This document shows, piece after piece, positions 224-50,366 of a stretch of DNA of 64,000 nucleotides (position 1 is the first letter of the stretch; each line of letters begins with the position of its first letter). Made by a program: the position numbers and the translations under genes. The notes beneath the pieces were generated by a model that saw only the letters and a program-made list of their open reading frames with translations, was not told the DNA's origin and did no database searches. Source of the DNA: Dehalococcoidia bacterium (GTDB lineage Bacteria; Chloroflexota; Dehalococcoidia; Lucifugimonadales; UBA3495). The stretch spans positions 1,317,035-1,381,034 of the forward strand of contig CBDANJ010000008.1 of the NCBI GenBank assembly GCA_965197545.1, read 5' to 3'.

Positions 224-391
224 CCCCTAACGCAACCCTCTCCCCCACCACTTTCCATTCCTCTATACAGGATTCTACGCAACACCCTGGAAGACCTGCG
301 TCCAAATCACGACGGGTTTACACCCGCCCACGGCTTCCCTTTGGGAGTCCGCACACCCAAACGCCATATCACAACTTCAAGGAGATACGTC

Positions 392-1240
392 ATGTCCAAC
401 GAGAACGGCAACGGCAACCAGCGCAACGGGCACGGCAACAACAACGGCCACCAGAACGGCAATGGCAACCACTACATCCCCTCCAACGGCGTCTCCAAGA
501 ACGGGAGCAACCACAACGGCAACGGGCACCACGCCGACGACTCCATCCCTACCCACGACCTCTTGTGGGACTCCCTGCCCGCCAGCGTCAGCGAGAAGCT
601 GGCCCAGCCCCTGGACGCCAGCCTGGTCTCCCAGCGCAAGGGCCGGGGCAACCGGAGCTTCAGCTACGTCGAGGGCCGCACCGTCATCGACCAGGCCAAC
701 CGGATATTCGGATTCGGCGGCTGGGGCCACGAGGTGATGGGCGACGTGACCCTCCGGGACCTGGACCAGGTGAACACGCAGACCGGCGAGGTCAAGCGCA
801 TCCGGGCCTACTCCGCCACGGTGAAGGTCACCGTCCCCGGCGCGCCGCCCCGCACCGACGTCGGATTCCAGCCGGTATCCGACGAGACCGCCGAGGGGCA
901 TGAGACGGCGTTCAAGGGCGCGGTCACCGACGCTCTCAAGCGGGCGCTCAGGACCTTCGGCGCCCAGTTCGGCAACGCGCTCTACGGCGACGTAGCAGGC
1001 CAGCCCGGCGGCGGCGCCGGCGACACGCTGGCCCCGGCCCTGCGCAAGACCCTCCTGGACCTGGGGGTCAGCCAGGGCTTCGACGAGGAGCGGGTGCGGC
1101 AGGCGGTGCGGGGCCAGACCGGCAGGGATCTGGACGAACTGCCCGCCTCGGAACTGACGCCCCTGGTGGAGCGGGCCGCCCGCAAGGTGCAGCAGCGGCA
1201 GGACGCGGAGGCGGGTCAGAACAGCGGCGCCGAGCAGTAG
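392..1240 (+). CDS. Rad52/Rad22-type single-strand annealing protein
   Basis: AAGGAG 379-384 then ATG 392; Asn/Gly-rich N-tail, then core ...RKGRGNRSFSYVEGRTVIDQANRIFGFGGWG...AFKGAVTDALKRALRTFG... recognised as Rad52-family. Confidence 0.8.
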   Translation: MSNENGNGNQRNGHGNNNGHQNGNGNHYIPSNGVSKNGSNHNGNGHHADDSIPTHDLLWDSLPASVSEKLAQPLDASLVSQRKGRGNRSFSYVEGRTVIDQANRIFGFGGWGHEVMGDVTLRDLDQVNTQTGEVKRIRAYSATVKVTVPGAPPRTDVGFQPVSDETAEGHETAFKGAVTDALKRALRTFGAQFGNALYGDVAGQPGGGAGDTLAPALRKTLLDLGVSQGFDEERVRQAVRGQTGRDLDELPASELTPLVERAARKVQQRQDAEAGQNSGAEQ

Positions 1241-1272
1241 ACCTTCCGGCTAACTGGCAACCACCCAGGCAA

Positions 1273-1305
1273 CGGGGCCGTTCCCTGACAACCGGGGCGG
1301 CCCCG
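1273..1305 (+). terminator. GC hairpin (CGGGGCCG..CGGCCCCG) after Rad52 gene; member of a repeated hairpin family
   Basis: 8-bp perfect stem 1273-1280/1298-1305, 30 nt downstream of stop; near-identical copy at 3850-3882. Confidence 0.5.
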
Positions 1306-1346
1306 CTTCTCATCTACCGGACCAAACAACACAAGGAGGAAACGGC

Positions 1347-1667
1347 ATGACCGGAACCAGAATGCACACGCCCTGGGGCTATCCTCAGGACATCGAGGAA
1401 CTGGCCGAAGGGGTCTGGCGGGTCTCCACCGCCAGCCACGGCGGGTTGAAGCTCAGCCGGGAGCGGTGGGAGGAACTCCCCGACCTGGTCAGGGACTCCT
1501 TCCTTACCCCGGCCTACGCGGAAGGGGACTGCGAGGAACCCATCGCCAGGACCCTGCTGGGTATCGGCGACGAAAGGGATAGGGGGTTCGCCCTGAAGGT
1601 GGCGGGCTGTTTCGACCGCTACGCCCCGGCGCTGCCCTACCTGCGAGACCAGAGGGGACAGCCATGA
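1347..1667 (+). CDS. hypothetical protein
   Basis: AAGGAGG 1334-1340 before ATG 1347; ATGA overlap with next gene; no family recognised. Confidence 0.55.
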   Translation: MTGTRMHTPWGYPQDIEELAEGVWRVSTASHGGLKLSRERWEELPDLVRDSFLTPAYAEGDCEEPIARTLLGIGDERDRGFALKVAGCFDRYAPALPYLRDQRGQP

Positions 1668-2059
1668 CCGCCACCAGGAGCAGGCCGCGCAGCCTGCCCA
1701 GCGTGACGACCAAGCTGGCGACGGAACTGGGCAACCTCTACGTCACCGTCTGCCTGGACGAGGACGGAAACCCCTTTGAGGTCTTCGGCTCCCTGGGCAA
1801 GGCCGGCAGCCTCCAGCACGGGGTCACCGAGTTGGCCTGCCGGCTGGTGTCCCTGCACTTGCGGCGCGGCACGCCGCTGGACGAAATCGTTGACCAACGC
1901 CAGGGCATTTCGGAGATGCAGCCCTGGCCCAACGTGATGGAGGACGGCAGCACGGTGTACGTGCGCGGCCTCGGCGACGGCATCGCCCTGATCCTGCGGG
2001 GCCACCTGGCGGCCCAAGCTGAAGTGGGAATGGAGGAACTCAGGCTGGCTGCCGACTGA
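1664..2059 (+). CDS. TSCPD-domain protein (ribonucleotide-reductase C-terminal-like domain)
   Basis: ...GNPFEVFGSLGKAGSLQHGVTELACRLVSLHLRRGTPLDEIVDQRQGI... resembles the TSCPD domain; translationally coupled to upstream ORF. Confidence 0.55.
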   Translation: MTATRSRPRSLPSVTTKLATELGNLYVTVCLDEDGNPFEVFGSLGKAGSLQHGVTELACRLVSLHLRRGTPLDEIVDQRQGISEMQPWPNVMEDGSTVYVRGLGDGIALILRGHLAAQAEVGMEELRLAAD

Positions 2060-2092
2060 AAGAACTGCGCTGACCAGACCTGCCAAGGCACA

Positions 2093-2122
2093 CGGGGCCG
2101 TCTCCTACGGGGAGCGGCCCCG
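2093..2122 (+). terminator. GC hairpin of the same CGGGGCCG/CGGCCCCG family
   Basis: Stem 2093-2100/2115-2122 directly after the TSCPD gene stop. Confidence 0.5.
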
Positions 2123-2164
2123 CTCAAATTTCCCCGACACAGCAATTACGGAGGAAAGACAACC

Positions 2165-3223
2165 ATGACGACGACCATTGACAGCAAGACGGACGTCTAC
2201 TCGCGGCCCAACGCCCGCTTCGGCGACGACGGGACCCTGGAGATCCGGGCCTCGGCGGTGGGCAACTGCCGCCGCGCCCTCTGGTACGAGGCCAACGAGT
2301 ACCCGGTCACCAACGCGCGTACCGAGGAGTCCCTGACCGTCCTGGAGGCGGGCAACGCCCTGGAGCCGGTGGTGCTCAAGGCCATGCGGCGGGCCGGTTG
2401 GGACATCACCCCTACCGACCGGGACAACCCTGAAATGATGTCCCTGCGCCTCGGCCCCGCCCTGGTGGTCACGGGCCACGTGGACGCCACCGGAATCGTC
2501 CCCATCTTCGGTGACGAACCCAGCGTCATCGAGATCAAGACCCGGGGGCCGGAAGCCTACAAGCGGTGGTGGAAGTTGGGGGCGGAGCGCAGCCACCCGG
2601 AGTCGGTGGCCCAGGCCGCCTTCTACTCCTACGGGACCTTCGGGGAGGCGCGGGACGTGGTGATCGCCACGATGGACACCGGCAGTCGCCAGTGGGACTT
2701 CGAGGTGATTCCGGCGGAGCGGGTCGCCACAGCTTTCCACCGGGCCTGCGAGCGGCTGGGTGCCATCGGCGCCCACCACCTGCTGCACGGGCGGGACTCT
2801 CAGGCCCTGCCGGAGCGGGACTTCACCGCCGACGACTGGCAGTGCCAGCGCTGCCCCTTCCTGAACACCTGCCTGCCGGGGTCAGCGGCGCCTGAACCCG
2901 AACCCGATGGAGGGGAAGAGAACGCCGAGCCGGTGAACGACGAAGAGGCGCAGGCGGCGCTCCGGGAGTACGAGAACGCCCAGGAGATGCTGAAGGCGAT
3001 TGAAGAGGACAAGCAGTGGGCCTTGGGGATGCTGCGGACCTGGCTCAAGCAGCAGGGCAAGGACAAGGCCCGGTTGGAGGGGAGGGAGAAGACCCGAACC
3101 GTGGGGATGGTGAAGTCCACCCGCTACAACGTCGATCACAAGAGGCTGAACGCCCTGCTGGAGCCGGAGACCAGGGCGGGCATCGTCACCGAGAACGTCT
3201 CCGAGTACCTGCGGGTCAGCTAG
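2165..3223 (+). CDS. PD-(D/E)XK nuclease, Cas4-like (four-Cys cluster)
   Basis: GHVDATG ... VIEIKTRG (D...ExK) plus Cys in GNCRRALWYE and C-terminal CQRCPFLNTC (CxxCx5C) as in Cas4/RecB-type phage exonucleases. Confidence 0.7.
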   Translation: MTTTIDSKTDVYSRPNARFGDDGTLEIRASAVGNCRRALWYEANEYPVTNARTEESLTVLEAGNALEPVVLKAMRRAGWDITPTDRDNPEMMSLRLGPALVVTGHVDATGIVPIFGDEPSVIEIKTRGPEAYKRWWKLGAERSHPESVAQAAFYSYGTFGEARDVVIATMDTGSRQWDFEVIPAERVATAFHRACERLGAIGAHHLLHGRDSQALPERDFTADDWQCQRCPFLNTCLPGSAAPEPEPDGGEENAEPVNDEEAQAALREYENAQEMLKAIEEDKQWALGMLRTWLKQQGKDKARLEGREKTRTVGMVKSTRYNVDHKRLNALLEPETRAGIVTENVSEYLRVS

Positions 3224-3255
3224 ACGCACCTTGACGCACCGAAGCGGAGCGCCAA

Positions 3256-3291
3256 CGGGGCCGCTCGTTCCCACGGAGATTGTCGGCCCCG
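3256..3291 (+). terminator. GC hairpin of the CGGGGCCG/CGGCCCCG family
   Basis: Stem 3256-3263/3284-3291 after the nuclease gene stop (3223). Confidence 0.45.
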
Positions 3292-3343
3292 CAATCCATA
3301 TGGGCAACCATCAATCACAACCTAACGTAACGGAGGAACCATC

Positions 3344-3808
3344 ATGGCGAAGAGCATCAACAAGGTAGAACTCCTGGGCCGGGTCGGAAGCGACCCGGAG
3401 ATGAAGTACACGGCGTCGGGCATCGCCGTCACCCAGCTGCGCCTGGCCACCGACCGGGTGCGCAAGGGCGGCGAGTCCGAGACCGACTGGCACCAGATCG
3501 TGGTGTGGGACAAGCTGGCTGAAGCTGTCGCGCAGTACGTGGAAAAGGGGCAGAGGCTGTACGTCTCGGGCCGCCTGGCGCAGAACTCCTGGACCGGCGA
3601 CGACGGGCAGCGGCGCTACCGAACCGAGATTCACGCCCAGGAGGTGGTGTTCCTGGACTCCGCCCGCAACGGCGGCGGCAACCACACGGGCAACGGCTCT
3701 GCCAACGGGGTCAACGCCGCCGCCAACCACCAGGCCAACGCCGGAAACGCCAACGGATTCAACGCTGGCGGTGGTTACCAGCCCGGCGACGAGGACTCTC
3801 CCTTCTAA
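3344..3808 (+). CDS. ssb: single-stranded DNA-binding protein
   Basis: MAKSINKVELLGRVGSDPEMKYT...WHQIVVWDKLAE...RYRTEIHAQEVVFLD, Gly/Asn-rich linker, acidic tail DEDSPF. Confidence 0.9.
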   Translation: MAKSINKVELLGRVGSDPEMKYTASGIAVTQLRLATDRVRKGGESETDWHQIVVWDKLAEAVAQYVEKGQRLYVSGRLAQNSWTGDDGQRRYRTEIHAQEVVFLDSARNGGGNHTGNGSANGVNAAANHQANAGNANGFNAGGGYQPGDEDSPF

Positions 3809-3849
3809 CTGGACATCCGCACACCGGCGCCTTCCCCAAGGCGCAACCA

Positions 3850-3882
3850 CGGGGCCGTTCCCTCACAGCAGGGGCGGCCCCG
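3850..3882 (+). terminator. GC hairpin, near-identical to 1273-1305
   Basis: ACGGGGCCGTTCCCTCACAGCAGGGGCGGCCCCGCT vs ACGGGGCCGTTCCCTGACAACCGGGGCGGCCCCGCT. Confidence 0.5.
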
Positions 3883-3917
3883 CTCCCGTTTCCAGACTAA
3901 TCGCCAAGGAGTGAACC

Positions 3918-4478
3918 ATGCCCAGGAAGAAGCAAGCCAAGCAAGAGGAAATGCTCCTGTCCATCCCCGAACCCGCCGCTCCCGCCACGCCGGAGGGCCA
4001 CGCCGTGCTGGAGGCCCTGCGCTCCAACCTGGCCCTGCTGGGGGAACTGGCGGCCCGCTACGAGGTCGCCTTCCAGCCGGAACGCCCCGCCGAGATGCCC
4101 ACCATCAACTGCCCGCAGGACGTTCACAACCTGCTGGGGCCGGAGATGTCCGCCCTGGCCCAGGAGCAGCTGCGGGTGCTGCTGCTCAACACCCGCAACC
4201 AGGTGCGGGGGCAGCGGGTGGTCTACATGGGCAACGTCAACTCGTCGGTGATTCGCCCCGCCGAGGTGCTGCGCGCTGCGGTCATCGAGTCCGCCCCCAG
4301 CATCATCATTTCCCACAATCACCCGTCCGGCGACCCAACCCCCAGCCCCGAGGACGTGTCCATCACCCGCGAGTTGGTGCAGGCGGGGAAGCTCCTCGGC
4401 ATCGACCTCCTGGACCACGTGGTCATCGGCGGCGACCGCTGGGTCAGCCTCAAGGAACGGAAGCTGATGGACGTTTAG
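3918..4478 (+). CDS. radC: RadC-like JAB/MPN domain protein
   Basis: JAMM motif ...IIISHNHPSGDPTPSPEDVSITRELVQAGKLLGIDLLDHVVIG. Confidence 0.85.
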   Translation: MPRKKQAKQEEMLLSIPEPAAPATPEGHAVLEALRSNLALLGELAARYEVAFQPERPAEMPTINCPQDVHNLLGPEMSALAQEQLRVLLLNTRNQVRGQRVVYMGNVNSSVIRPAEVLRAAVIESAPSIIISHNHPSGDPTPSPEDVSITRELVQAGKLLGIDLLDHVVIGGDRWVSLKERKLMDV

Positions 4479-4575
4479 CTCCATGACACCGAGACCGGCG
4501 GCGGCGCGCCGGTCCTCACGCGGGGGGTTCCCTTCCCCGCGCCCTTCCCGAATCCACACCTACAGGAGGCACTCC

Positions 4576-5256
4576 ATGATTCCCACGGAACCCGTCCAGA
4601 GCGGCGAGGACCCCGCATCGAGTGCGGGGCAGGCTCTCTACACGATAAGCGCCGGAGGCTACTCGGCCACCGCCGACGCCTTCGCCCGAGACCCCGACAC
4701 CGGCGGCCTCTGGTTCCTGTCGATGGTGGGGCCGCAGACCGCCCTCAAGGCCATCTGGGCCTCCCTGCTCAAGCAGCCGCCCGACACCGCCCACCTGATC
4801 AAGGGCGTGGAGGGCATGGCCCTCTCCGGCGGATACCAGCAGTGCCAGGTCCCGTATCACACCGTCGGCACCTGGACCACCCGCATCGTGCGGCTGCCCG
4901 TAAGCCGGGGCTGGCACGCCCTCGTTTACACCCGGCTGGCGGAGTTCAGCTTCGAGCGGGACGACTTCCTGCTGCTGGCCCAAGACCAGGCCGACGCGCC
5001 GGGGCTGCACCACCGCTTCCTGGACCGGCGCGGCCCCCTGCCCCTGCACCGCTCCTGGCGGGACTGGCTCTGGCGAAGGGGGTTGGACACCGGGGAGACC
5101 GTCCCCCTGGAGTCCGCCGGGCTCCTGGCCTACACCTGCAACCCCAGGGGCGAGGAACTGAAGGCCGACCTGTCGGCGGCGGTGGCGGCGGGGACGCTGA
5201 CCCTCAATGAACCGGAACCCGAAACCGATGAAACGGAGGAAGACAACGATGGATAG
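4576..5256 (+). CDS. hypothetical protein (carries a 24-nt micro-insertion at 4612-4635)
   Basis: AGGAGG 4564-4569 then ATG 4576; no family recognised. Confidence 0.5.
   Translation: MIPTEPVQSGEDPASSAGQALYTISAGGYSATADAFARDPDTGGLWFLSMVGPQTALKAIWASLLKQPPDTAHLIKGVEGMALSGGYQQCQVPYHTVGTWTTRIVRLPVSRGWHALVYTRLAEFSFERDDFLLLAQDQADAPGLHHRFLDRRGPLPLHRSWRDWLWRRGLDTGETVPLESAGLLAYTCNPRGEELKADLSAAVAAGTLTLNEPEPETDETEEDNDG
4612..4635 (-). repeat. AGCCTGCCC-hairpin micro-insertion, copy 5 (24 nt, in frame)
   Basis: Minus strand reads AG|AGCCTGCCCCGCACTCGATGCGGG|GTC; stem CCCCGCA/TGCGGGG. Confidence 0.7.
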
Positions 5257-5656
5257 GACTCTGAACCCGGTGAAGCGGGGCAACAAGCGCCGCCGCTCCC
5301 GCAACTGGAAGGCCTGGCAGCTCTTCTCCCCGGACGGTGACACCTGCCGTTTCTGCCCCCACGGGGCTTCCGACCACCTGACGTCAAGCGGTCAGCCCCA
5401 TTTCTACCGGCCCGCCGCCGAGCAGGACTGGCGGAACTCCAACGAGAAGCTCTACCGCCACGAACTGGCCGACGGCTCCGAGGTGCTGGTCAAGCGCATC
5501 ACCGTCGCCAGCCGCGCCGAGCTGCTGACGGCCTTCTGCACCGCCTGCGCCAAGGACAAGCAGACCGGCCAGGTTCTCTGCTTCCAGCGCACGCTGGCCA
5601 AGGGCGAGGTGGTGGGCCTGACGAACCTGAACGGAAACCACAACGACGGGAGGTAG
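5249..5656 (+). CDS. hypothetical Cys-containing protein
   Basis: GGAGGA before ATG 5249; CRFCPHG and CTACAKD pairs suggest metal binding; start uncertain (ORF opens at 5207). Confidence 0.4.
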   Translation: MDRTLNPVKRGNKRRRSRNWKAWQLFSPDGDTCRFCPHGASDHLTSSGQPHFYRPAAEQDWRNSNEKLYRHELADGSEVLVKRITVASRAELLTAFCTACAKDKQTGQVLCFQRTLAKGEVVGLTNLNGNHNDGR

Positions 5657-5660
5657 CACG

Positions 5661-5930
5661 ATGGCGGACAAGCAGACCCTGTACTTTCCCTGCCCCGGCT
5701 GCGGGGCGCGGTTTGCCCGGGTGGAGGAGACCGGCGAGGACATCCACGCCGGGGAGACCTACACCTGCAACGAGTGCGGCGCGGCGGTGGTGCTCGTCGC
5801 CCTGAGCATGGAGATGCTGGCCGATCCCGCATCCATCCGCTGGAACTGCCACTTCTGCCAGCCCGGCCCCTGCCGGTTGGCCCCGTCCAGCGGCGCCTCC
5901 GGCGACTCCGACAACACCGATTCCAAGTAA
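5661..5930 (+). CDS. hypothetical zinc-ribbon protein
   Basis: CPGCG...CNECG spaced as a zinc ribbon; 4 nt after the upstream stop. Confidence 0.4.
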   Translation: MADKQTLYFPCPGCGARFARVEETGEDIHAGETYTCNECGAAVVLVALSMEMLADPASIRWNCHFCQPGPCRLAPSSGASGDSDNTDSK

Positions 5931-5959
5931 CCCTTTCCACACAACAAAGGAGGACAGAT

Positions 5960-6993
5960 ATGAGACTCGCTGCCCAAGCCAAGGGAGGCTTCTATCCCAC
6001 GCCGCCCCGGGTGGTTGACCTGGCTGCCCAACTGCTCTACGGGGCCAGGGGCCGCTCCCGCAGCGCGGACACCCTGCGCATCCTGGACCCCTGCTGCGGG
6101 GCCGGGGATGCCCTGGCCCAGTTCGCCGGCCTGCTGCGCGACCGCGGCACCGTACCCGTGGAGACCTGCGGGGTAGAGCTGCATAGGGACCGGGCGGAGC
6201 AGGCGGCCCACGTCCTGGACCGCGCCCTGGCCTGCGACCTCTTCGCCACGTCGATAGCCAACAACGCCTTCGGCGTGCTTCTCTTGAACCCCCCTATGAC
6301 TTCGATGCCGAAGACAAGCGCACCGAACACGCCTTCCTCACGCACACCACGCGCTACCTGACCGACGGCGGGCTGCTGCTGTTCATAGTCCCCAAGCAAA
6401 GGCTCTCCGTTTCCGCCCGCTACCTCTCCTCCCACTACCGGGACATCCGGTGCTGGGCGTTCCCCAGCCCGGAACGGGAGGTCTTCGACCAGGTGGTGCT
6501 GGTGGGCCGGCGCAAGGCGGAACCCAGCCCCGACCCCTACGCCGAGGAGCAGGTGCGGGACTGGGCCGAGGGGGAGCCGGAGGAGTTCTCGCCCCGCCCC
6601 TACCCGGTCTACGACCCTCCGGTGGTTGCCGCCGGGGACATCCTCTTCGCCACCCGCACCGTTGACCCCCTGGCGGCGGTGACCGAGGCTCGGAAGACCG
6701 GCCTGTGGGCCAGCCAGGAGGTCAGGGACTCCCTCTGGCCCGCCCAGGACCAGCGCACCCGCCCGTTGATGCCGCTCCGCCGGGGCCACATGGCCATGCT
6801 GGTGGCGGCGGGTTTCCTCGACAACCTGGTGCTGGAGGCCGAGGGAAGGCGCATCCTGGTCAAGGGGCGCACCACCAAGGAGCTGGTGCTGGCCGAGGAG
6901 ACGGAGAACACCGAGGTCTACCGGGAACGGCTCAAGACCACCGTCGTGGCCCTGGACCTGGACGACGGGGAGATCACCGACATCGCCGCCTGA
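5960..6993 (+). pseudogene. SAM-dependent N6-adenine DNA methyltransferase, frame broken in a C6 run
   Basis: AGGAGG then ATG 5960; motif I ILDPCCGAGDAL; LLLNPP then frame slips at CCCCCC 6289-6294; the next frame continues YDFDAEDKRTEHAFL... to 6993 (restores NPPY). Confidence 0.7.
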
Positions 6994-7044
6994 CCCCGCC
7001 CAACGACAACTACTCTGACGGCTGCAACGCCAGCCGCGACACGA

Positions 7045-7080
7045 AGGCCCCGCTTGTTCCACCAGGGACGGGCGGGGCCT
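7045..7080 (+). terminator. intrinsic-terminator-like hairpin
   Basis: AGGCCCCGC/GCGGGGCCT stem followed by CGCTTTTCC. Confidence 0.55.
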
Positions 7081-7121
7081 CGCTTTTCCGAAAGGCAACA
7101 CTCAAGGCAAGGAGATTACCC

Positions 7122-7347
7122 ATGAACCTGTCAGGATTCATCGACCAGTTCAAGGAGGCCATCGCCAGGCGGGTGGTGGAGTCCTACCCGCCCCTCTACC
7201 GGCCTTCGGAGAACGGCCAGAAGCTGCCCCGGCTGCTGCGCACCCCGATGGGCGGCCAGGAGGACGCCATCAAGGGCACAGCCCTGTCCCTCCAGGCCCA
7301 CCGGGGCACCACGGTGGTGGGCGAGATGGGCACGGGCAAGACCTTCA
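7122..7347 (+). CDS. DEVH-box (SF2) helicase, exon 1, ending inside the Walker A region
   Basis: GGAG then ATG 7122; ...TTVVGEMGTGKTF then GTGCG intron 5' end at 7348. Confidence 0.8.
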
Positions 7348-8525
7348 GTGCGCCGCGTCACGCGGCATAGGATACCCGGCTCAGTCGGGAAGAACCCGGA
7401 GAAAGTTCTTGGGCCAACCGACCCACCTCGAAGCAAAAGCTTAGGGGGACAACAGCATGTCGGTAAAGCGGCTACAGTCCCAAAGCGTTGTAGGACTGGT
7501 TCCGCAAGGCCCGCGCGATACGGTGAAAGCTTGATTGCCTGAACCCCAGTTTCCAATTGGTGTTCTTGCCACCCGCCGGTAGAACGCTTGTAACCCGGCG
7601 CCGCTCATTGCACTGGTCTGATGAAGGAACAATGCAACTCCGATGAGCGGACGATGACCAGTGTGGTCATTCAAGGGAACGAACGGGGCACCTACAGTCG
7701 CGCTAGAACGTCCTATGTCAATGGAACGCGGGATGGCCTACGGGGGGAGACCCCTATGGTCACGGAGCCCTCGTAGTAGTCCGAGGACGGGAAAGCCGTC
7801 CACATGGCGAAGGAGGGCAGGTGTCAACGACGAACAAACACAGAGAGGTATGCACAATGCAAGACGCCGAAACTGTATTGAACGTCATACGCGAACGCGG
7901 AGAACGAGGATTGCCGCTGGAGAACATCTATCGGCTGCTTTACAACCGGAACTTGTACCTGCGGGCCTACGGTCGCATCTACTCAAACCAGGGAGCTACG
8001 ACCAAGGGCGTCACCGCAGAGACCGTGGACGGTATGTCACTGGCGAAAATCGACCGCATCATCGAAGCCTTGCGCTACGAGCGGTTCAGGTGGACGCCGG
8101 TGCGACGGGTCAACATTCCCAAGCCTAACGGCAAGACCCGCGCCTTGGGCATACCGACGTGGACGGACAAGCTGCTGCAAGAGGTCATCCGGATGATTCT
8201 GGAAGCCTACTACGAGCCGCAGTTTTCCGACCGCTCCCACGGCTTTCGGCCCAACCGGGGGTGCCACACCGCCTTGAGCAACGTGACCACCCACTGGACT
8301 GGTGTCCGCTGGTTCGTCGAGGGCGACATCAAAGGGTGCTTTGACAACATCGACCACGATGTCCTGTTGTCGGTGCTCGGCGAGAAGCTCCACGACAACC
8401 GATTCCTACGCCTGCTCAAGTACCTACTAAAGGCAGGCTACGTTGAGGATTGGAAGTATGGCGGCACGCTGAGCGGTACACCGCAAGGCGGAATAGTCAG
8501 TCCCATCCTCGCCAACATCTACCTA

Positions 8526-9750
8526 AACCAAAGCCAAGGTGAAACGTGCAGGAGCGTCCGGTAGAATCGGGGGAGTCGCAGGTGCGACGCGGGAAGCAGG
8601 AGTGGGATGGTGCTGGGCATGGGAGAGATCGACCGGTTCCTGGAACAGTGGGAAATGGACGCGCCGGGTGTGCACCAGCGGCTGATTCTGGCGCCGACAC
8701 CCCGGGAGCGATGGCACGCCATCTGGCTCCTGTCCCAGGGCTGGAGTGCCGCGGACACTGCCGTGGCCCTGCGTAGGGATTCTCATACCATAGGGAAGTG
8801 GCTTGCCGCCTTCGGCCAGGGCGGCCCGGCGGCTTTGATTTTCGAGCAGTCCGGAGGGTCCCCCCGCCCTTGGCCAGGCGCAGCGGGAGGAGTTGAAGGC
8901 GGCGGTGCAGGAACCTCCTGGCGCATCGGGCATTGGCTTGGCCAACTGGAACTGGAGGGCGGTGTGTCAGTTTGTCCTGGAGTGCTTCGGCGTCAGCTTG
9001 AGCCGCAGCAGTTGCCTGAACTACCTGCACCGCTTGGGATTCGCCTTCAAGCGGCCCAAGAAACGCCTGCTCAAGGCTGATGTGGAAAGGCGGGAGGCCT
9101 TTGTGGCAGAGTACGCTTCCTTGGTGGAGGAGGCGCAGGAGAACGGGGAGAAGATATTCTTCGCCGACGAGGCCCACTTCCGGGCGGACGCCGAGTTGCG
9201 GGGCAAGTGGGTGCTGAGGGGAGAGCCGGCCTTGGTAGACTCGACCAGCCCGAGGTACGGCGAGAAGGCTAGCTACTATTCGGCGGTGTGCTTGGAGACG
9301 GGGAAAGTGGAGTGGATGGAGTTGGAGGGAAACAGCAACAGCGAAACGTCGGCAGCCTTCCTGGAGCAATTGCGGGAGAAGCACGGAGGTCGGCTGAACG
9401 TGATCTGGGACAACGCGCCAGCGCATCGCGGCGAGGCGGTGAGGGAACTCCTGAAAAGGCCCGGACTGAACCTGCGGCTGGTGAATCTGCCGGGGTACAG
9501 TCCGGACTTCAATGCCGATGAGGCCATCTGGGGCTGGGCGAGAGAGGAGGCGACCGGCAACCTGTGCCTGGGAAGCAAGGGGCTGGTGCAGGAGAGAGTC
9601 GGCAGCTTCCTCGCCGGGCTGGTCAGCCGGAAGGACGAGGTGAAACGCCGTTGCCGAACCGTCCTGCAATCACGGACCGCAGGATTACTGCGCTCCACCC
9701 AGCCTGATTCCCAACATCCAGCAAATGCACATCCCACCTTGGCTTTAGTT
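8526..9750 (+). mobile_element. IS630-family insertion sequence with TA target duplication
   Basis: Inverted repeats AACCAAAGCCAAGGTG (8526-8541) and CACCTTGGCTTTAGTT (9735-9750) flanked by TA (8524-8525, 9751-9752). Confidence 0.8.
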
Positions 9751-9753
9751 TAG
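8607..9753 (+). pseudogene. IS630-family DDE transposase in two frames (shift at C6 run 8860-8865)
   Basis: HTH part ...WLLSQGWSAADTAVALRRDSHTIGKWL..., then ...IFFADEAHF...VIWDNAPAHRG...LPGYSPDFNADEAIW...; frames join at ...SGGSPP/ALGQAQREEL. Programmed frameshift versus indel not resolvable. Confidence 0.7.
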
Positions 9754-9792
9754 ACCGGTTGGACAAGGCTTTAGTTTAGACCGGTTGGACAA
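9741..9792 (+). repeat. 26-bp perfect tandem duplication spanning the IS630 right end/target junction
   Basis: GGCTTTAGTTTAGACCGGTTGGACAA x2 (9741-9766, 9767-9792). Confidence 0.9.
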
Positions 9793-10995
9793 GTTTGTCG
9801 AGAACGTGCTGATACCAGCCCACACCCGTGGCTCAGACCGGAGAGACAACCGCGAGTACACACGTTTGCTGAACCAAGCGGCCCGCCAGAGGAAGCGGGG
9901 GAACCACGCCAAGGCACTGCAACTGCGCAAGCAAATGCAACAACTGCCATCGCGTGACCCCTACGACCCCGGCTACCGCCGGTTACGGTACGTGCGCTAC
10001 GCGGACGACTTCGTGCTGGGTTTCATCGGGCCAAAGGTCGAAGCCCAACAGGTGAAAGAGTCCTTGGAGACGTTCCTGCGCGACTCGCTCAAGCTGGAGC
10101 TATCCAAGGAGAAAACTCTCATAACCCACGCCACCAGCCAGGCGGCGCGGTTCCTCGGCTACGAACTCGTGAACCAACAGGCCAACGACCAGTTTGACCG
10201 CAATGGTCGGCGCAGGGTCAACGGCCAAATCGGATTGCGGGTCCCCGCCGACGTCATCGAACAACACTGCCAAGCCTACATGCGCAAAGGCAAACCGGCA
10301 CACCGCAGTTACCTACTCCACGATGAAGATTACTCCATCGTGGCACAGTACCAGTCGGAGTTCCGGGGCGTCGTCAACTACTACCTTCTGGCCTACAACG
10401 TCTCCCATTTCGGGCGACTGCAATCGGTCATGGAGATGTCTTTGGCACGGACCCTTGCGGCAAAGCACAAGTCCACCGCACGGAAGATGCGACGCCAGTA
10501 CAAGAGCGTCGTGGAAACCGAGCACAGGCCGCGTGTCTGTCTCAAGGTCGTCAAGCAACGGGACAACGGCAAGCCACCTCGCGTGGCATATTTCGGTGGC
10601 ATCCCCCTGAAACGGCAACGGCAGGCCGTCCTAGTAGACCAACAGCCTCAACGGTACAGGAGCGGCCGCAACGAGCTTATCAAACGGCTCGAAGCGGACG
10701 AGTGCGAGGTGTGCCACTCAACGGTGAAAGTAGAAATTCATCACATCCGCGCACTTCGCGACCTGAACGTGAAAGGCCAACGGGAAAAGCCCAAGTGGGT
10801 ACAAATCATGGCGGCGCGAAAACGCAAGACCCTCGCGGTCTGCCGGACGTGTCACATGGACATCCACCACGGGCGCAAGTAATCCGCAATCGCAGCGGTA
10901 GTTAGTGTCCTCGGCTTAGGCAAAAACCAAAGTCGGGCCAGAGCCTTTCCTCCAACAATGTATTGGGCTACGGTATCCGGCAGAGGTGATAAAGC

Positions 10996-11196
10996 ATGAG
11001 CAAAGATATGCAGACCCGTATAGGCATAGGAATCGCGCTCGGAACCGGGGTAGGCGCGGCCATAGGCGTAGCCATCGGCGTGTCACTCGGCGATATCTTC
11101 CTGGCGATCGGCGTGGCAATCGGTGGGGGGACCGGCGCGGTGATAGGAATTGCCGTGGCGGTGGCGCTTGGGCGCAGAAATGGTGACACTTCCTAG
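10996..11196 (+). CDS. small glycine-zipper membrane protein (66 aa) inside intron domain IV
   Basis: GAGGTGA 7 nt before ATG; ...IGIGIALGTGVGAAIGVAIGVSLGDIFLAIGVAIGGGTGAVIGIAVAVALG...; two predicted helices of GxxxG repeats. Coding status unproven. Confidence 0.4.
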   Translation: MSKDMQTRIGIGIALGTGVGAAIGVAIGVSLGDIFLAIGVAIGGGTGAVIGIAVAVALGRRNGDTS

Positions 11197-11223
11197 ACAC
11201 TACCGCTTTGTAAAGACACTGGA

Positions 11224-11257
11224 GAGCCGGATGCGGTGAAAGCCGCACGTCCGGTTC
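11224..11257 (+). ncRNA. group II intron domain V
   Basis: GAGCCGGATGCGGTGAAAGCCGCACGTCCGGTTC, canonical 34-nt DV with GAAA loop and AGC triad. Confidence 0.9.
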
Positions 11258-11320
11258 GGAGGGGGGCCGACGGAAAAGTGCCCTGAGCAATCAGGGTAAC
11301 TCGCCGGCGGCCTACCCTAC

Positions 11321-14463: not shown

Positions 14464-14724
14464 TCAACTCAGTCCCGCAAGGCCGAAAAAAGTGGGCTTA
14501 AGGGGACTGTTCACAGTACCACCTTTGAGTTGGTAGTGGGCCTGTAGATCCCTTAAGCGGACAGCGTGATTGTTAAGCTCCTCCGTTATATATGGCAACG
14601 TGAACTCGTCAACACTGCCTTTGCCCCAAGGATGTGCATCTGGAGCCGACTGTCGAGTTCGCCTCTCACATTCCCTTGCATATGAAGGTGCCACAAGTAA
14701 TTGTACTAGGTGGGCAGTTGTCAA
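14464..14724 (-). CDS. hypothetical protein (86 aa)
   Basis: ATGA overlap with the upstream gene (14721-14724); same AT-richer composition. Confidence 0.4.
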   Translation of the reverse strand: MTTAHLVQLLVAPSYARECERRTRQSAPDAHPWGKGSVDEFTLPYITEELNNHAVRLRDLQAHYQLKGGTVNSPLKPTFFGLAGLS

Positions 14725-15518
14725 ACATCTAGCTCAGCAACGGCGAATGACTGCAATGCGGCCGCGACATGGATCGCTAGCTCCGCTCGTGGTCCCGTGG
14801 GTTCATTGCCACCTATGGAAGCGTGCCTAGCACCGACAGTTCCGCTGCCTTGGCTGTAGAGCGCACCGAATAGTCGCTTGATTCCACCGGGCAAGTCGGG
14901 CCGCAAATTTTCACTGACTATGGTGGGAAGTGCCACGCTTGGACGGTCGAAGATAACCTGCAGTACCCCCTCGACGGAATTAACGGCCTCCTTGATGGCA
15001 TTGGGCCAATCGGGAGGCAATCTGTTTCTGAACTCGTAAGCACGTTCGAACTGTCGGCGAGGCTCGTCAAATTTCTCATCCTCCAGGGCGGTCCTAGCAT
15101 CATTGACCGCACCATGGAATTCTTCCGTGCCTACACGGACCAGATTCCCCGAGTCAAAACGGTACCCGATTCCTTCGTCTGCAAGAATTCCATTAGTTGC
15201 TTCGTAGTATGGCTCAACTTCCTGCTCGGGCAAGAACCTAGGAATTCGCTCCAACGCATCGAAGAACTTATACCAAGGCCCTGTCTGAATCAGTTGTGAT
15301 ACCTCAAAATCAACATTTGGATAATCACTCCAGTTATTTTGGTCTGGAGTGATTCTGAGTGCGCTACATAGGATTTGTCGCTGTGCTGTCGGCCTTTGGT
15401 AACCCAGAACATGCAGCACCTCACGAATTCCAATGCGGATGGCATCGGGAGCGTCGTCATACACCAAGTTGGTTCCATTCCTAAAGCCTTCACGCAAAGA
15501 GAATGGTTGATTTGTCAT
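14721..15518 (-). CDS. AbiJ-N-terminal-domain / Abi_C-like protein (putative abortive-infection component)
   Basis: N-terminus MTNQPFSLREGFRNG...DDAPDAIRIGIREVL fits my memory of the AbiJ NTD pattern (FSxRxG...LRxxLW). C-terminus ...LFGALYSQGSGTVGARHASIGG... resembles the Abi_C/HEPN-like conserved GxRH region. From memory only. Confidence 0.4.
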   Translation of the reverse strand: MTNQPFSLREGFRNGTNLVYDDAPDAIRIGIREVLHVLGYQRPTAQRQILCSALRITPDQNNWSDYPNVDFEVSQLIQTGPWYKFFDALERIPRFLPEQEVEPYYEATNGILADEGIGYRFDSGNLVRVGTEEFHGAVNDARTALEDEKFDEPRRQFERAYEFRNRLPPDWPNAIKEAVNSVEGVLQVIFDRPSVALPTIVSENLRPDLPGGIKRLFGALYSQGSGTVGARHASIGGNEPTGPRAELAIHVAAALQSFAVAELDV

Positions 15519-16389: not shown

Positions 16390-18202
16390 CTAGAAACTGG
16401 GCCGGAAAGTCCTGGTTGGGTAGGGGAATTTGGGCAGTAAAGCCGATGTGAGCAGAATCACGGACCACAGTTGTCCGAGCCGGACCTCGCAGAAATTGGC
16501 CGCAGCATGGGCGACAACAAAGGGGACAATATTGAAGACGACGCTGCGGCCTGTTGCGCCGCCGCCGGTACGGCCCGACCACCCGAGTTTCCCGGCCGCC
16601 AGGGTCAGGTTGGCTACTGTGGCAGCCAGATACAGCTGGAACCTGGTCTTGACCCTGCCGAAATATCGGGACTGGCGAATGCCCAACTGGACCAGTCGGG
16701 CCAACCGGTGTTCCACCACCACCCGGCGCACTCGATATTCGTCATAGTGAGTGCTTTGCTGCAACGCTCGGGCCTGCTGCAGCAGGGCTTCCTGGGGATG
16801 GAGCAGCACCCGCCGCCCCCTGCTCCCCTTGGCTGCGATGCACTGGGACCGCAGTGGACATGTCCGACATTCGGCCCCGTCGAACTGGAAGGCCTGCAAG
16901 CGGTGGACCCGCCCCGTGCGACCCGTCCGCTTTCCCGCCGGCACGATGGTGTGGGTAACCTGTCCCGCCGGACAGGTGCAACTGCCCGCGGCCAGGTCGA
17001 TGACAAAGTCATCCTTGGGAAAGTGCTTCCGGTCGGGCCTTCCCGGCACTCTGGCCACCAAACAGCGTCCCGCATCGGCGAAGGCCTGCCTGGTATCGCC
17101 GTCCCCATAAGCGGCATCGCCCATGGCTTCCTCCACCGGCACACCGGTGTTGGCCTCGCTCTGCTCCACCAATTCCAGCGCCCCCAGGTTGTCCGGAGCG
17201 TTGCCGGGCAATACCTCCACCGCGGTGATCAGCTGGGAGTCGGTGTCCACCACAATCGCCGCCTTGTGGCCGTCAAACCGTCTACTGCTGCTCTTGCGGC
17301 CGTGGCGCATCTCCGGGTCATGCACCGACATCATCCGGTCCCGGCTCACCCCGTCCTTGAGATTCACTCCGTCATCGGCCCGCTCCACGTCCTGGAGCAG
17401 CAACTGCCCCAGCAGTTCCGCTGCGGCCACTATCTGCTGCCGCTCAGCGCTGTCATCCCCCAACTCCCCCTGCGCCCGCCGCGACAACTCCAGCAACCGG
17501 TCCGCGTCAGCTACTATCAAGGACAGCAGCGCCGTCCGGTCCCGTTTGTTGCTCCAGTCGATGGCGGCCTCGCCCTTGATGCTGGAGGCAAGGTACCGCC
17601 CATATCCCCGGGCCTTGGCCCATTTCCCGACGCTGATTCCCTCAACCTGCGACAGCGCCCGCAGCAGTTTGACGATCCCGTCCGCCAACAGGTTGTAGGT
17701 GTCCTTCACCGCGCCCCGCCCCAGGATGTTGGTCGTGTCCAATGCCACCCGCATCCCGCGCCCTTTCAGATACCCCGACTCCCGGGCCAGTCTCAGACTG
17801 GACTCGAACACCTCCCGCACCTTGCCGTGCAGGATCAGCTGGGCGCGGAACACCTGCAGCGTGCTCTTGGCGAAGGGCCGGTCTTCCGCCTCAATTCCCA
17901 ACGCCACCCCCGGTCGTGGCCGGGGGCAGGCTCTTCCAGCGGAGGTCAAAGTCGGCCCGGGCCTTGGCCTCGGCGTCGCTCACCTTGTCGTGGGACTGCA
18001 ACAGCAGCGCCGTCGCCAGCAGGCTGGGCGGCACGCTGTCCCGGCCGTTGTCGGGGCAGTAGAACTCGGCGAAATCCGCGTCTCGGAACAGCCGGCCCCG
18101 CAGCGACGCCAGAAGACCGTAGAAGCTTTCCCGCCCCACATGGTCCAGATACAACCGATCCGCTTCCCAGAACCCTCTCTGGTCCGAACGCTCTCCCAGC
18201 AT
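16390..18202 (-). pseudogene. IS1182-family transposase, frame broken only by a 25-nt micro-insertion
   Basis: N-terminal part ...SVPPSLLATALLLQSHDKVSDAEAKARADFDLRWK then 25 nt (17908-17932) then VALGIEAEDRPFAKSTLQVFRAQL...; CTCPAGQ...CRTCPLRSQC block; stop lies in the IR. Confidence 0.8.
17908..17932 (-). repeat. AGCCTGCCC-hairpin micro-insertion, copy 1 (25 nt)
   Basis: Minus strand: ..TGGAAG|AGCCTGCCCCCGGCCACGACCGGGG|GTGGCG..; stem CCCCCGG/CCGGGGG. Confidence 0.8.
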
Positions 18203-18305
18203 TCTCAGCCCTCGCTATGCTTGTTGACCCCAAGTATAGCCAATTGCCCGGCTACCGCCACTTTCCGGCCAGATTTCTAGGGCCTCCCGCGGGATGCGAC
18301 GGCGT

Positions 18306-48696: not shown

Positions 48697-49247
48697 AAGA
48701 ATGCACTCCGCCCAATCCCGACTATTAAGGATACTCTGAACAAGCCCTGTCCGCGGCCTGATTGGGATTGCCGGCAGGGCAATCGCGTTTTAATTCGTAA
48801 CGGTATGCTGGCTCACCTTTTGCGCGTTTTGTTGGCTTGGAAACCCTCGAATCACCATTCAGGGATCCCAATGTGGCCCGCTCAATGGGAGAGGGGATGT
48901 CGAGAAAACCAGGTTTTGAGGCAAATTGCCCTATCCTTAACAGTTATTGTGGTGGCAATCAAGAACAATTTTGGCCTACGGTTTATAACGCGATTGCCCT
49001 GGGGTTGCCGGGTCAGTTTTGCGGAAATATCCGGCCTGCGGCTCGTTTTCTGCAATGTCCGGCCCCCTCACCTGCTCCCACAGGAGCCTTTGCGGGCCTT
49101 GATCGGTCCCAGCGGCGGTTCGGGGGAGAATTTGGGCCCACTGCTCCCCCATCACCCGGCCAGGCGGCCCTCCACCGTCAGCAGGTTGCCCAGTCCCAAA
49201 AGCAGCGTCAGCCGCTGCGTGTTCTTCGCCAAGCCCCGGTAGCGCAC

Positions 49248-49270
49248 CCCCGCTTTCGCGAGGGCAGGCT
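49248..49270 (-). repeat. AGCCTGCCC-hairpin micro-insertion, copy 3 (23 nt, GAAA loop)
   Basis: Minus strand: ..GCCAAG|AGCCTGCCCTCGCGAAAGCGGGG|GTGCGC.. Confidence 0.8.
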
Positions 49271-49318
49271 CTTGGCGTACCCGAACACCCGCTTCGCTTT
49301 CAGGAAGGGGTGCTCCAC

Positions 49319-49343
49319 CCCCGATCGCCGTCGAGGGCAGGCT
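49319..49343 (-). repeat. AGCCTGCCC-hairpin micro-insertion, copy 2 (25 nt, imperfect stem)
   Basis: Minus strand: ..GCGAAG|AGCCTGCCCTCGACGGCGATCGGGG|GTGGAG.. Confidence 0.8.
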
Positions 49344-49916
49344 CTTCGCCCGTATCGATGCCTTGTTTCGCTCCGCCAATGCTTCCCCGCTGCCCGGGTC
49401 CGGTTTCCGCCGCTGCCCCGGCCGCATCGCCACCTGCCAATTCACCTCCCGTCCCCGGTTCTCCTCCCGTTTCCCGGCTCCCCGATACCCGGCATCCCCC
49501 CGCACTTGGGACTCTCCGCCGTGGAGCAGCCGGTGCGCCTCGCTCACGTCATGCACGTTGGCCGCCGTGGTGGTCATGCTGTGCATCACCCCCGTCTCCG
49601 AGTCCACCTCGATGTGCAGCTTCATCCCAAAATGCCATTGATTCCCCTTCTTCGTCTGGTGCATCTCCGGGTCCCGCTCCCCAGTCCGGTTCTTGGTGGA
49701 CGACGGGGCTTCGATGATGCTAGCATCCACGATGGTTCCCTCCCTGAGCCGCAGCCCCTGGGCCTCCAGATCACGGTTAATCTCCTGGAACAGACCCTGG
49801 CCCAGCTCGTGTTGTTCCAGCAGATGGCGGAAGTTGAGGATGGTGGTCTCGTCGGGCAGGGCATCTGGCAGCTTCAGACCCACGAACCGCCTGACCGACT
49901 CGGCCTCGTACAGCAG

Positions 49917-49939
49917 AGCCTGCCCCCGTGAAAACGGGG
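49917..49939 (+). repeat. AGCCTGCCC-hairpin micro-insertion, copy 4 (23 nt, GAAA loop, antisense to the gene)
   Basis: Plus strand: ..CAGCAG|AGCCTGCCCCCGTGAAAACGGGG|GTCCTC.. Confidence 0.8.
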
Positions 49940-50251
49940 GTCCTCCATGCCGGGGTCACTGAGGTTGTAGAACAACTGGACGCAGTGGACCCGCAGCATT
50001 ACCGGCAAAGGATAGGGCCGGCGGCCGTTTCCAGGCTTGGGATAGCAGGGCCGGATGCGGTCTTCCAATCGCTGCCAGGGAATCAGGCCATCCATGCGTT
50101 CCAGAAACAGTTCGCGGCGGGTCCGGCGTTTCTTGCCCTGGTATTCCAGGTCGGCAAAGGTGGGGCTGGTCCATCTGCTCTTGTCCCTCCGGCGGCATCA
50201 ACTCTTTCAGCCTCAGTATGCCATAACCTGCTGGACTTGTTCAGAGTATCC

Positions 50252-50366
50252 CTAGGATGGCGCCCCGGTCGTATGCGTCTCGGAGCCAATTTCTCGAAGC
50301 CGGACCATGTCGAGGGTCGCCGAGAAATAGGGCTAGCAACACATTGGTGTCGACGGCTGTGATCAT
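50252..50366 (-). pseudogene. vapC: PIN-domain VapC toxin, 5' fragment truncated by IS5
   Basis: MITAVDTNVLLALFLGDPRHG... overlaps the antitoxin stop (ATGA) and ends at the IS5 inverted repeat. Confidence 0.65.

Follow-up and report, generated by a model that had tools for sequence, protein, structure and literature searches.

Analysis of a 64,000-nucleotide (nt) stretch of DNA from a Dehalococcoidia bacterium (contig CBDANJ010000008.1, positions 1,317,035 to 1,381,034; hereafter the window) established that the transposase gene of a minus-strand insertion sequence (IS) of the IS1182 family is interrupted by 25 nt inserted at the DNA level between an AAG and a GTG codon. These 25 nt are not a feature of the protein family, and they break the reading frame, splitting the gene into open reading frames (ORFs) of 103 and 503–519 amino acids (aa). 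It can be stated with high confidence that they represent one copy of a dispersed family of insertions, each composed of an unpaired 5' AGCCTG tag followed by a short hairpin, and the probable explanation of the whole is that the family consists of elements resembling repetitive extragenic palindromes (REPs), which may be pasted as single strands 3' of AG. The predicted effect of this particular lesion is ordinary, in that the IS copy would be dead or at best crippled; the agent of interest is a widespread, precisely bounded, tagged micro-hairpin that recurs inside transposase genes. The features directly concerned are as follows.

16390 to 18280, minus strand: complete IS1182-family IS with terminal inverted repeats, its transposase gene running from 18202 to 16390 and broken solely by the 25 nt.
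17891 to 18202, minus strand: N-terminal transposase fragment (103 aa), ending in 13 residues (SLPPATTGGGVGN) that derive from the insertion and the shifted frame.
17908 to 17932, minus strand: micro-insertion of 25 nt, comprising the AGCCTG tag, a CCCCCGG stem, a CCACGA loop and CCGGGG, recognised from a gap against the related copies L002, L005 and L001 and from its fold.

On the minus strand, positions 17932 to 17908 read AGCCTGCCCCCGGCCACGACCGGGG, lying between ..GAC CTC CGC TGG AAG and GTG GCG TTG GGA.., and the sequence, coordinates and immediate flanks (TGG AAG and GTG GCG) given in a preliminary description of this DNA thus proved to be exact. The stem proposed there, CCCCCGG/CCGGGGG, was likewise confirmed: its seventh G is supplied by the host gene, as the opening base of the GTG codon, and the single-stranded DNA (ssDNA) fold of −8.7 kcal/mol leaves the AGCCTG tag unpaired. 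The upstream frame stops 14 codons past the insertion junction, and the downstream frame, corresponding to a 519-aa ORF at 16390–17949, stays open through the 25 nt; the two frames overlap by ~58 nt, with homopolymer runs (C5 and G5) inside the overlap. Exact removal of the 25 nt in silico fused the two into a single ORF of 595 aa, which at 305 bits exceeded the cut-off of the NCBIfam IS1182 equivalog (270), exhibited 93% identity over 100% of its length to the intact 595-aa protein P0001, and contained the domains DUF772, DDE_Tnp_1 and DDE_Tnp_1_6. Since the restored ORF is full-length and scores as IS1182, and since the 21-nt terminal inverted repeats (16390–16410 and 18260–18280) are kept, the element once freed of the 25 nt carries both marks of IS1182 membership (equivalog cut-off and terminal inverted repeats), and the insertion is the only visible lesion, as had been proposed.

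The preliminary description also entertained a different origin, namely a natural peptide loop of 8–9 aa in this transposase lineage, put out of frame by a 1-nt loss or similar change in the G run, a reading with which both the open downstream frame and the existence of a translated in-frame 24-nt sibling in another gene would agree. More than 100 full-length homologues at 83–93% identity were listed, and all 17 of those whose sequence was read contain DFD[LI]RWKVALGIE, with nothing inserted and neither SLPPATTG- nor SLPPATTGG-like residues at the RWK–VALG junction, where comparison with database IS1182 proteins had been advised. Alignment of the related DNA copies L002, L005 and L001 gave a clean 25-nt gap at TGGAA(G/A)^GTGGC (^ marks the point of insertion). 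Because neither the homologues nor the related DNA contain the insert, the combination of a natural loop and a point indel is excluded; the same tag and hairpin moreover recur across phyla, both between genes and within unrelated genes, leaving this reading with a negligible probability.

Equally little weight can be given to an artefact of sequencing or assembly (a leftover adapter or an error in long reads, for example), a concern that arises from the many family matches supplied by long-read projects generating metagenome-assembled genomes (MAGs). At least 20 contigs, drawn from three ENA samples, encode exactly the 103-aa interrupted product with its insertion-encoded tail, and one contig is 100% identical to the window across 2.1 kb; the hairpin sequence differs from copy to copy; and the hosts detected in genome scans include cultured isolates, some of them available as Illumina assemblies, together with a complete Sphingomonas plasmid. 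A search of other strains for an uninterrupted IS1182 at the same genomic locus found none, the insertion being present in all strains sampled.

The identical 25 nt was found in IS1182 copies at two genomic contexts, and neither copy bore any other lesion. The 76 differences between them are clustered at coding-sequence positions 407–800, with 50 of the 76 in one 400-nt block, and the first 400 nt (insertion included) differ at just 2 positions. The corresponding dN/dS of 0.27 was initially a candidate sign of purifying selection and hence of function; the clustering, however, identifies the differences as a recombination mosaic, and the value is therefore not evidence of function. The mosaic indicates that the insertion spreads among IS copies through homologous exchange, and it does not imply that the gene is functional.

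These observations bear directly on the proposal that the interruption is conditional or leaky, the transposase still being made by slippage or after precise excision and the element serving as an attenuator or switch. Slippage would have to be +1 on C5 or G5 (CCC_C or GGG_G) for the 25-nt copy and −1 for 23-nt copies. The frame overlap with its homopolymer runs, the presence of interrupted but otherwise undamaged IS1182 copies at no fewer than two contexts with a dN/dS of 0.27, and the recurrence in several species of otherwise intact IS630, ISAs1 and IS5 copies bearing the element could all be accommodated in this way. However, the differences responsible for the low dN/dS sit in the mosaic block, a pattern that recombination with intact copies would produce, and trans-mobilisation or gene conversion explains the multiplicity. 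Furthermore, around half of all copies are antisense and their lengths range over 23–27 nt, so that no single recoding rule could apply, and no stimulatory stop or rare codon and no Shine-Dalgarno sequence was found. Restoration of the frame by a +1 slip at C5 or G5 is conceivable, though nothing specific speaks for it, and the leaky interpretation as a whole is considered quite improbable.

The window contains four sibling copies, three of them in a single IS of another family.

49319 to 49343, minus strand: sibling copy of 25 nt, AGCCTGCCCTCGACGGCGATCGGGG, at GCG AAG^GTG GAG (RAK^VEHPF), sense within an IS5 transposase.
49248 to 49270, minus strand: sibling copy of 23 nt, AGCCTGCCCTCGCGAAAGCGGGG, at GCC AAG^GTG CGC (YAK^VRYRGL), sense within the same IS5 transposase.
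49917 to 49939, plus strand: sibling copy of 23 nt, AGCCTGCCCCCGTGAAAACGGGG, at CAG^GTC, antisense to the IS5 transposase (MED^LLYE).
48999 to 50258, minus strand: IS5-family element holding these three copies and otherwise uninterrupted, as indicated by ORF restoration and domains.
4612 to 4635, minus strand: sibling copy of 24 nt at GAG^GTC, lying antisense within a conserved hypothetical ORF (4483–5256) whose frame it preserves and in which it is translated as PASSAGQA.

The string AGCCTGCCC occurs six times in the window against an expectation of 1.0, and because none of 100 shuffles reached six, the five-copy family cannot be ascribed to chance. A 7-bp hairpin directly follows five of the six occurrences, and a scan combining a regular expression with hairpin detection returned a stable count of five copies. 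Taking out all three IS5-borne copies yielded an uninterrupted transposase ORF, and the three empty sites in related IS5 copies appeared as clean gaps of 25, 23 and 23 nt, thereby bearing out the earlier view that these siblings are insertions. The copy at 49319–49343, which has a T.G wobble in its stem, is matched by an empty site in L006, L007 and L107; conversely, L107, an IS5 of 75% identity from another Dehalococcoidia MAG, has exactly the 23 nt of AGCCTGCCCCCGTGAAAACGGGG at the corresponding site.

The remaining copy lies in an ORF that adjoins radC. Homologues of this ORF without the insert (P0121, P0122, P0125, P0127 and P0147) read ..GED^LYTISAGGY, and those with it are increasingly diverged, from PASSAGQA in P0123 and P0124 to PVSSTGQT in P0130 and PVSNTEQE in P0137; the series points to an old insertion that is translated and is decaying as coding sequence.

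All five window copies lie after AG and before G-T, and comparison of filled with empty sites revealed no target duplication beyond a 1-nt ambiguity. Insertion takes place in DNA, in either orientation, without visible duplication and with a preference for AG^G. Copies with a length not divisible by three break the host gene, and in-frame copies are translated. Four of the five copies are located in the two ISs, which hold 12 of the ~200 [AC]AGGT[GC] sites in the window, a placement for which our own hypergeometric arithmetic gave p ~1e-5; part of this bias must come from frameshifts being purged from essential genes.

Beyond the window, an exact-pattern scan of one genome per species located at least 118 loci in genome contigs, and pattern scans located at least 120 in metagenome contigs and at least 120 in viral contigs. 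Almost every match in genomes and metagenomes was a perfect hairpin following the same tag. Hosts recorded in the genome scan included Chloroflexota (Dehalococcoidia and Anaerolineae), many Alphaproteobacteria, Xanthomonadales (Gammaproteobacteria), Nitrospirota, Planctomycetota, Binatia, Myxococcota and others. Joining the flanks restored ORFs of IS630, ISAs1, IS3, IS256, IS110 and IS5, together with an unclassified transposase-like ORF, confirming that the element is not a feature of one IS lineage. The preliminary description had reached that conclusion by calling IS1182 and IS5 unrelated, which is too strong for two families sharing DUF772 and DDE_Tnp_1; in other genomes, truly unrelated families (IS630, IS3, IS256, IS110 and ISAs1) are nevertheless hit. 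Around one-fifth of the sampled sites restore transposase ORFs and around four-fifths restore no long ORF on removal. The elements, which are mostly singletons, are thus not confined to ISs: many are intergenic, and many lie inside other small palindromes, in particular CGTC-tagged REPs, whose GAAG loop or stem they occupy. A BLAST search of plasmids with a 35-nt consensus, too short a query to give more than nine weak matches, produced one useful result, the above Sphingomonas plasmid from a cultured isolate, in which a copy sits at CAG^GTC in an IS256-type pseudogene.

Individual elements measure 21–28 nt (23 nt being commonest, followed by 26, 24, 25 and 27) and consist of the unpaired tag plus a GC hairpin of 6–9 bp. 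The AGCCTG tag is invariant in essentially all copies, and the hairpin interior varies: the stem begins CCC(C/T)CG and ends CG(G/A)GGG, and the loops fall into two classes, a G-N-R-R tetraloop and C-N2-4-GA. Pairing was recorded in 99% of stem cells, with 12 compensatory cells against 2.6 in shuffles, among sequences pre-selected for pairing, and ssDNA folds ranged from −4.4 to −9.1 kcal/mol. With regard to the target, AG stands directly upstream at 49 of 109 unique genome sites (45%) and 33 of 110 metagenome sites (30%), compared with an expected 1 in 16, and at the position following the stem the bias is only weak (T 34%, C 27%, A 21%, G 18%). The AAG^GTG context noted at the outset generalises only to a position after AG, seen at 30–45% of sites, and before G, with a weak bias at the 3' base.

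The fourth stem pair, examined with a search pattern symmetric in Y/R, provided information on strand. It was T.G in 40 copies, C-G in 38, T-A in 25 and C.A in 7, several of the C.A cases having no convincing hairpin by eye in the raw listing. Because T.G is far commoner than C.A on the tag strand, it is one defined strand that folds, and copies containing T gave a better fold on the tag strand than on its complement.

Copies in transposase genes are sense and antisense in about equal numbers (roughly 9 to 7), a result at odds with removal at the RNA level, whether as a mini-intron of the XBP1/HAC1 type or by translational bypass in the manner of T4 gene 60 and the 'byp' elements. With their hairpin, a size of 23–26 nt and an AG^G(T) junction, the elements do bear a superficial similarity to such systems. 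Bypass and mini-introns are, however, restricted to sense copies and depend on matching codons or splice signals, neither of which applies here: antisense is as frequent as sense, take-off and landing codons are unmatched (AAG versus GTG), the in-frame copy is translated and decays as coding sequence, and many copies are intergenic. An RNA intron or bypass was accordingly rejected on orientation and on the spread of lengths (23, 24, 25, 26 and 27 nt), and is regarded as highly improbable.

The mechanism proposed for these elements is that of a REP-like, non-autonomous mobile DNA active as the single (tag) strand, which would be pasted 3' of AG in the style of IS200/IS605 and REP/RAYT systems, with a guide at the hairpin foot pairing with the cleavage or target site. 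In REPs and in IS200/IS605, such pairing with the site that is cleaved or targeted is made by a short guide lying just 5' of the foot (PMC8266576). By analogy, the CTG at the foot of the present hairpin would serve as the complement of a preferred CAG, two of three positions matching in the case of AAG or GAG. Copies would build up in ISs for two reasons: frameshifts are tolerated there, and multicopy ISs could exchange the insertion by recombination.

An origin that dispenses with any dedicated enzyme was also weighed. Through microhomology-mediated template switching, a 3' end terminating in AG would anneal to the AG in front of another copy, copy the hairpin, and return to its original template at the G run. 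Compatible with such events are the microhomologies (AG and G) at the two junctions, the lack of visible target duplication, the failure to find a flanking transposase near copies, and the nesting of elements in the GAAG loops of similar hairpins. The 6-nt tag is, however, invariant across phyla while the interior varies, which indicates sequence-specific recognition, and neither the strand-specific excess of T.G nor the existence of two loop classes is predicted by passive copying; template switching is therefore judged unlikely, if less so than a leaky interruption.

Several results nevertheless weigh against single-strand transposition by a dedicated enzyme. DNA near the sampled copies was searched for Y1 transposases by phmmer with IS200, IS608 and RAYT sequences as queries, and no Y1/HUH transposase was detected in ~0.95 Mb of genome loci plus the window. 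Only one marginal match (E = 0.016) was obtained in 1.09 Mb of viral loci, and Pfam analysis of 20 window ORFs provided no candidate enzyme. In 0.54 Mb of metagenome loci, one RAYT-like Y1 ORF was found (L136, 1258–1824; E = 2.6e-7 against an E. coli RAYT), on a 2-kb contig with an AGCCTG element 1.2 kb away and without flanking elements; this proximity is probably a coincidence. The 3' boundary, GGGG^G, is unlike the 5' target, AG^, contrary to a single-guide Y1 model. The five window copies carry five different hairpins and so have no single recent master copy, and density is low, no copy having been found in the 138 kb of window relatives scanned. Lastly, orientation relative to local GC skew, a crude proxy, divided 74 versus 97 loci (p = 0.09), and the lagging-strand bias typical of IS608 is not supported here. 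On balance, insertion of a REP-like element retains its place as the probable explanation overall, the single-strand, HUH-type mechanism being advanced only as a tentative possibility.

Among known systems, the closest parallels are with REPs, their paired forms (REPINs) and the associated RAYT transposases, which share a GC-rich stem-loop of 20–40 nt, a short unpaired tag at the 5' foot, dispersed copies and G.T pairs on one strand. REPs, which occur in high copy number and mainly outside genes, are occasionally inserted within them, including as in-frame translated copies, and their tag is thought to guide the choice of cleavage site (PMC3733652, PMC6006769, PMC8266576). The AGCCTG elements are, like REPs, short imperfect GC palindromes (7-bp stems with compensatory changes), but the tag is AGCCTG rather than GT[AG]G (PMC6006769, PMC3733652). 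They also differ in being mostly singletons, with one five-copy cluster (L019), where REPs often form inverted doublets or clusters of bacterial interspersed mosaic elements; in being inserted precisely after AG, as filled and empty pairs demonstrate, where the cleavage site of REP systems is CT; and in that no REPtron, a RAYT gene flanked by the repeats, was found in DNA near sampled copies. No description of recurrent disruption of IS transposases by REPs was found in the REP literature examined.

CGTC-tagged REPs (Di Nocera et al. 2013), an orphan superfamily of Alphaproteobacteria and others, have the same arrangement of a tag, an 8–9-bp stem and a 4–5-nt loop, an overlapping taxonomic range and, similarly, no known associated transposase; in one CGTC REP that is common (CCCGCGAAGGCGGG), the innermost 14 nt are even identical to the core of the commonest AGCCTG element. 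They are defined, however, by a CGTC, TGTC or CCTC tag, a stem starting with A-T and a CCA-like tail (PMC3733652), whereas the present elements have AGCCTG, a stem starting CCC, and no tail. Since AGCCTG elements are inserted inside CGTC REPs, of which filled and empty versions exist, the two are distinct units.

Two Dehalococcoidia contigs illustrate this nesting. On OZ251457.1 (L059, ~6500–6800), the CGTC-tagged REP CGTCATACCCGCGCTTGCCGCGG^GTATCTCGACG is present both empty and filled, the filled version carrying an AGCCTG element in its 3' arm, and the filled composite recurs in several Dehalococcoidia species. On CBDCTY010000002.1 (L019, 4488–5965), five AGCCTG elements lie within 1.5 kb, four of them in the GAAG loop of CGTCATTCCCGCGAAG^GCGGGAAC REPs, and a 421-aa ORF with internal repeats is found among them; the inner 14 nt of the latter REP is the core of the commonest AGCCTG element, a resemblance which hints that the two families may be related.

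Members of IS200/IS605 and their deletion derivatives, palindrome-associated transposable elements (PATEs), likewise insert 3' of a short specific sequence without duplication, as do AGCCTG elements, and are hairpin-dependent and strand-specific with a guide 5' of the foot. They differ in possessing distinct left and right hairpins and tnpA/tnpB, and in measuring several hundred nt, compared with a single hairpin of 21–28 nt that has no tnpA/tnpB and a 3' end at the hairpin foot. Miniature inverted-repeat transposable elements are set apart by IS terminal inverted repeats and target duplication, the AGCCTG tag having no inverted 3' partner. Rickettsia palindromic elements (RPEs), the GC clusters of yeast mitochondria, and byps are all small palindromes tolerated or translated in coding genes; RPEs are, however, longer (100–150 bp), GC clusters are organellar and byps are skipped by the ribosome, whereas frameshifting AGCCTG copies break the gene.

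Rfam searches of the window returned the group II intron domain as the only match reaching gathering score, and nothing of relevance emerged when three loci bearing the element were searched against Rfam by E-value. A search of the open literature (subscription titles lying outside it) by sequence on both strands and by keywords found no description, and the AGCCTG tag is absent from the supplementary material of the paper on GTAG and CGTC tags. The AGCCTG hairpins are thus REP-like palindromic elements that are apparently undescribed. To go further, and to regard them as a third REP-like superfamily beside GTAG and CGTC, extending across phyla and phage contigs, pasted after AG by a separate enzyme and living as parasites of parasites, is at present doubtful; part of that reading is that the elements would knock out or reversibly attenuate the transposase genes of at least eight IS families.

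The practical value of the signature is that it distinguishes 'frameshifted' transposases and small peptide inserts caused by the element from those arising through random decay or sequencing error, recognition of the element allowing the original gene to be reconstructed exactly. Clean filled and empty pairs furnish direct evidence of mobility for a REP-like element, of a kind hard to obtain from extragenic repeats, and a tag unlike those of the two described REP superfamilies points to a separate single-strand DNA enzyme. If the elements do accumulate preferentially in ISs, they would naturally curb IS activity and serve as markers of recombination among IS copies.

A number of further observations were made on individual loci. 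Three ISAs1-family copies of two lineages (~80% protein identity by eye) on Dehalococcoidia contig OZ240206.1 (L039 and L048) share one 23-nt element, identical in sequence and inserted at HD^TFSRVF in each, which suggests either a strong site preference or transfer between copies. In viral DNA, a family of tailed-phage or gene transfer agent-like fragments (L281, 4683–4709, and 26 related contigs) contains the tag and a CCCCCGGG..CCCGGGGG hairpin, which run antisense to a 120-aa ORF among tail-like genes, at its 3' end and just downstream of GGGGGAA. From its position, we take this ORF to be a candidate tail-assembly chaperone, and the hairpin may be the frameshift-stimulating hairpin of that gene rather than a mobile copy.

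Both contexts of the interrupted IS1182 are flanked by defence-type genes: the window copy by one coding for a protein with an AbiJ N-terminal domain (14721–15518), and the second context by one for a SMODS/DncV-like (CBASS-type) nucleotidyltransferase (L247/L251, 3765–4646). One IS1182 homologue of 598 aa (P0025) contains the stretch GKPWAMPPAATAIPGRPSPMRGR, an alternative-frame reading of the usual GDAAYGDGDTRQAFADAGR, and thus represents a compensated double frameshift within an otherwise intact transposase.

The copy at 4612–4635 is hosted by a high-GC (0.65–0.68) prophage-like module, or one resembling an integrative and conjugative element, at 341–7400, the genes of which include a Rad52-type recombinase, SSB, RadC and a DNA methyltransferase. 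The window also contains a group II intron (7821–11320). A link between it and the tagged hairpins, considered on the grounds that their flanks often read GTGCG and that the intron lies in the window, received no support. Its reverse transcriptase ORF is split into 7821–8564 and 9785–10882, the latter containing the maturase and HNH parts, and domain V/VI is located at 11222–11320. An IS630-family element at ~8530–9770 is responsible for this split, and the short direct repeat ctttagtttagaccggttggacaag occurs twice at the IS end.

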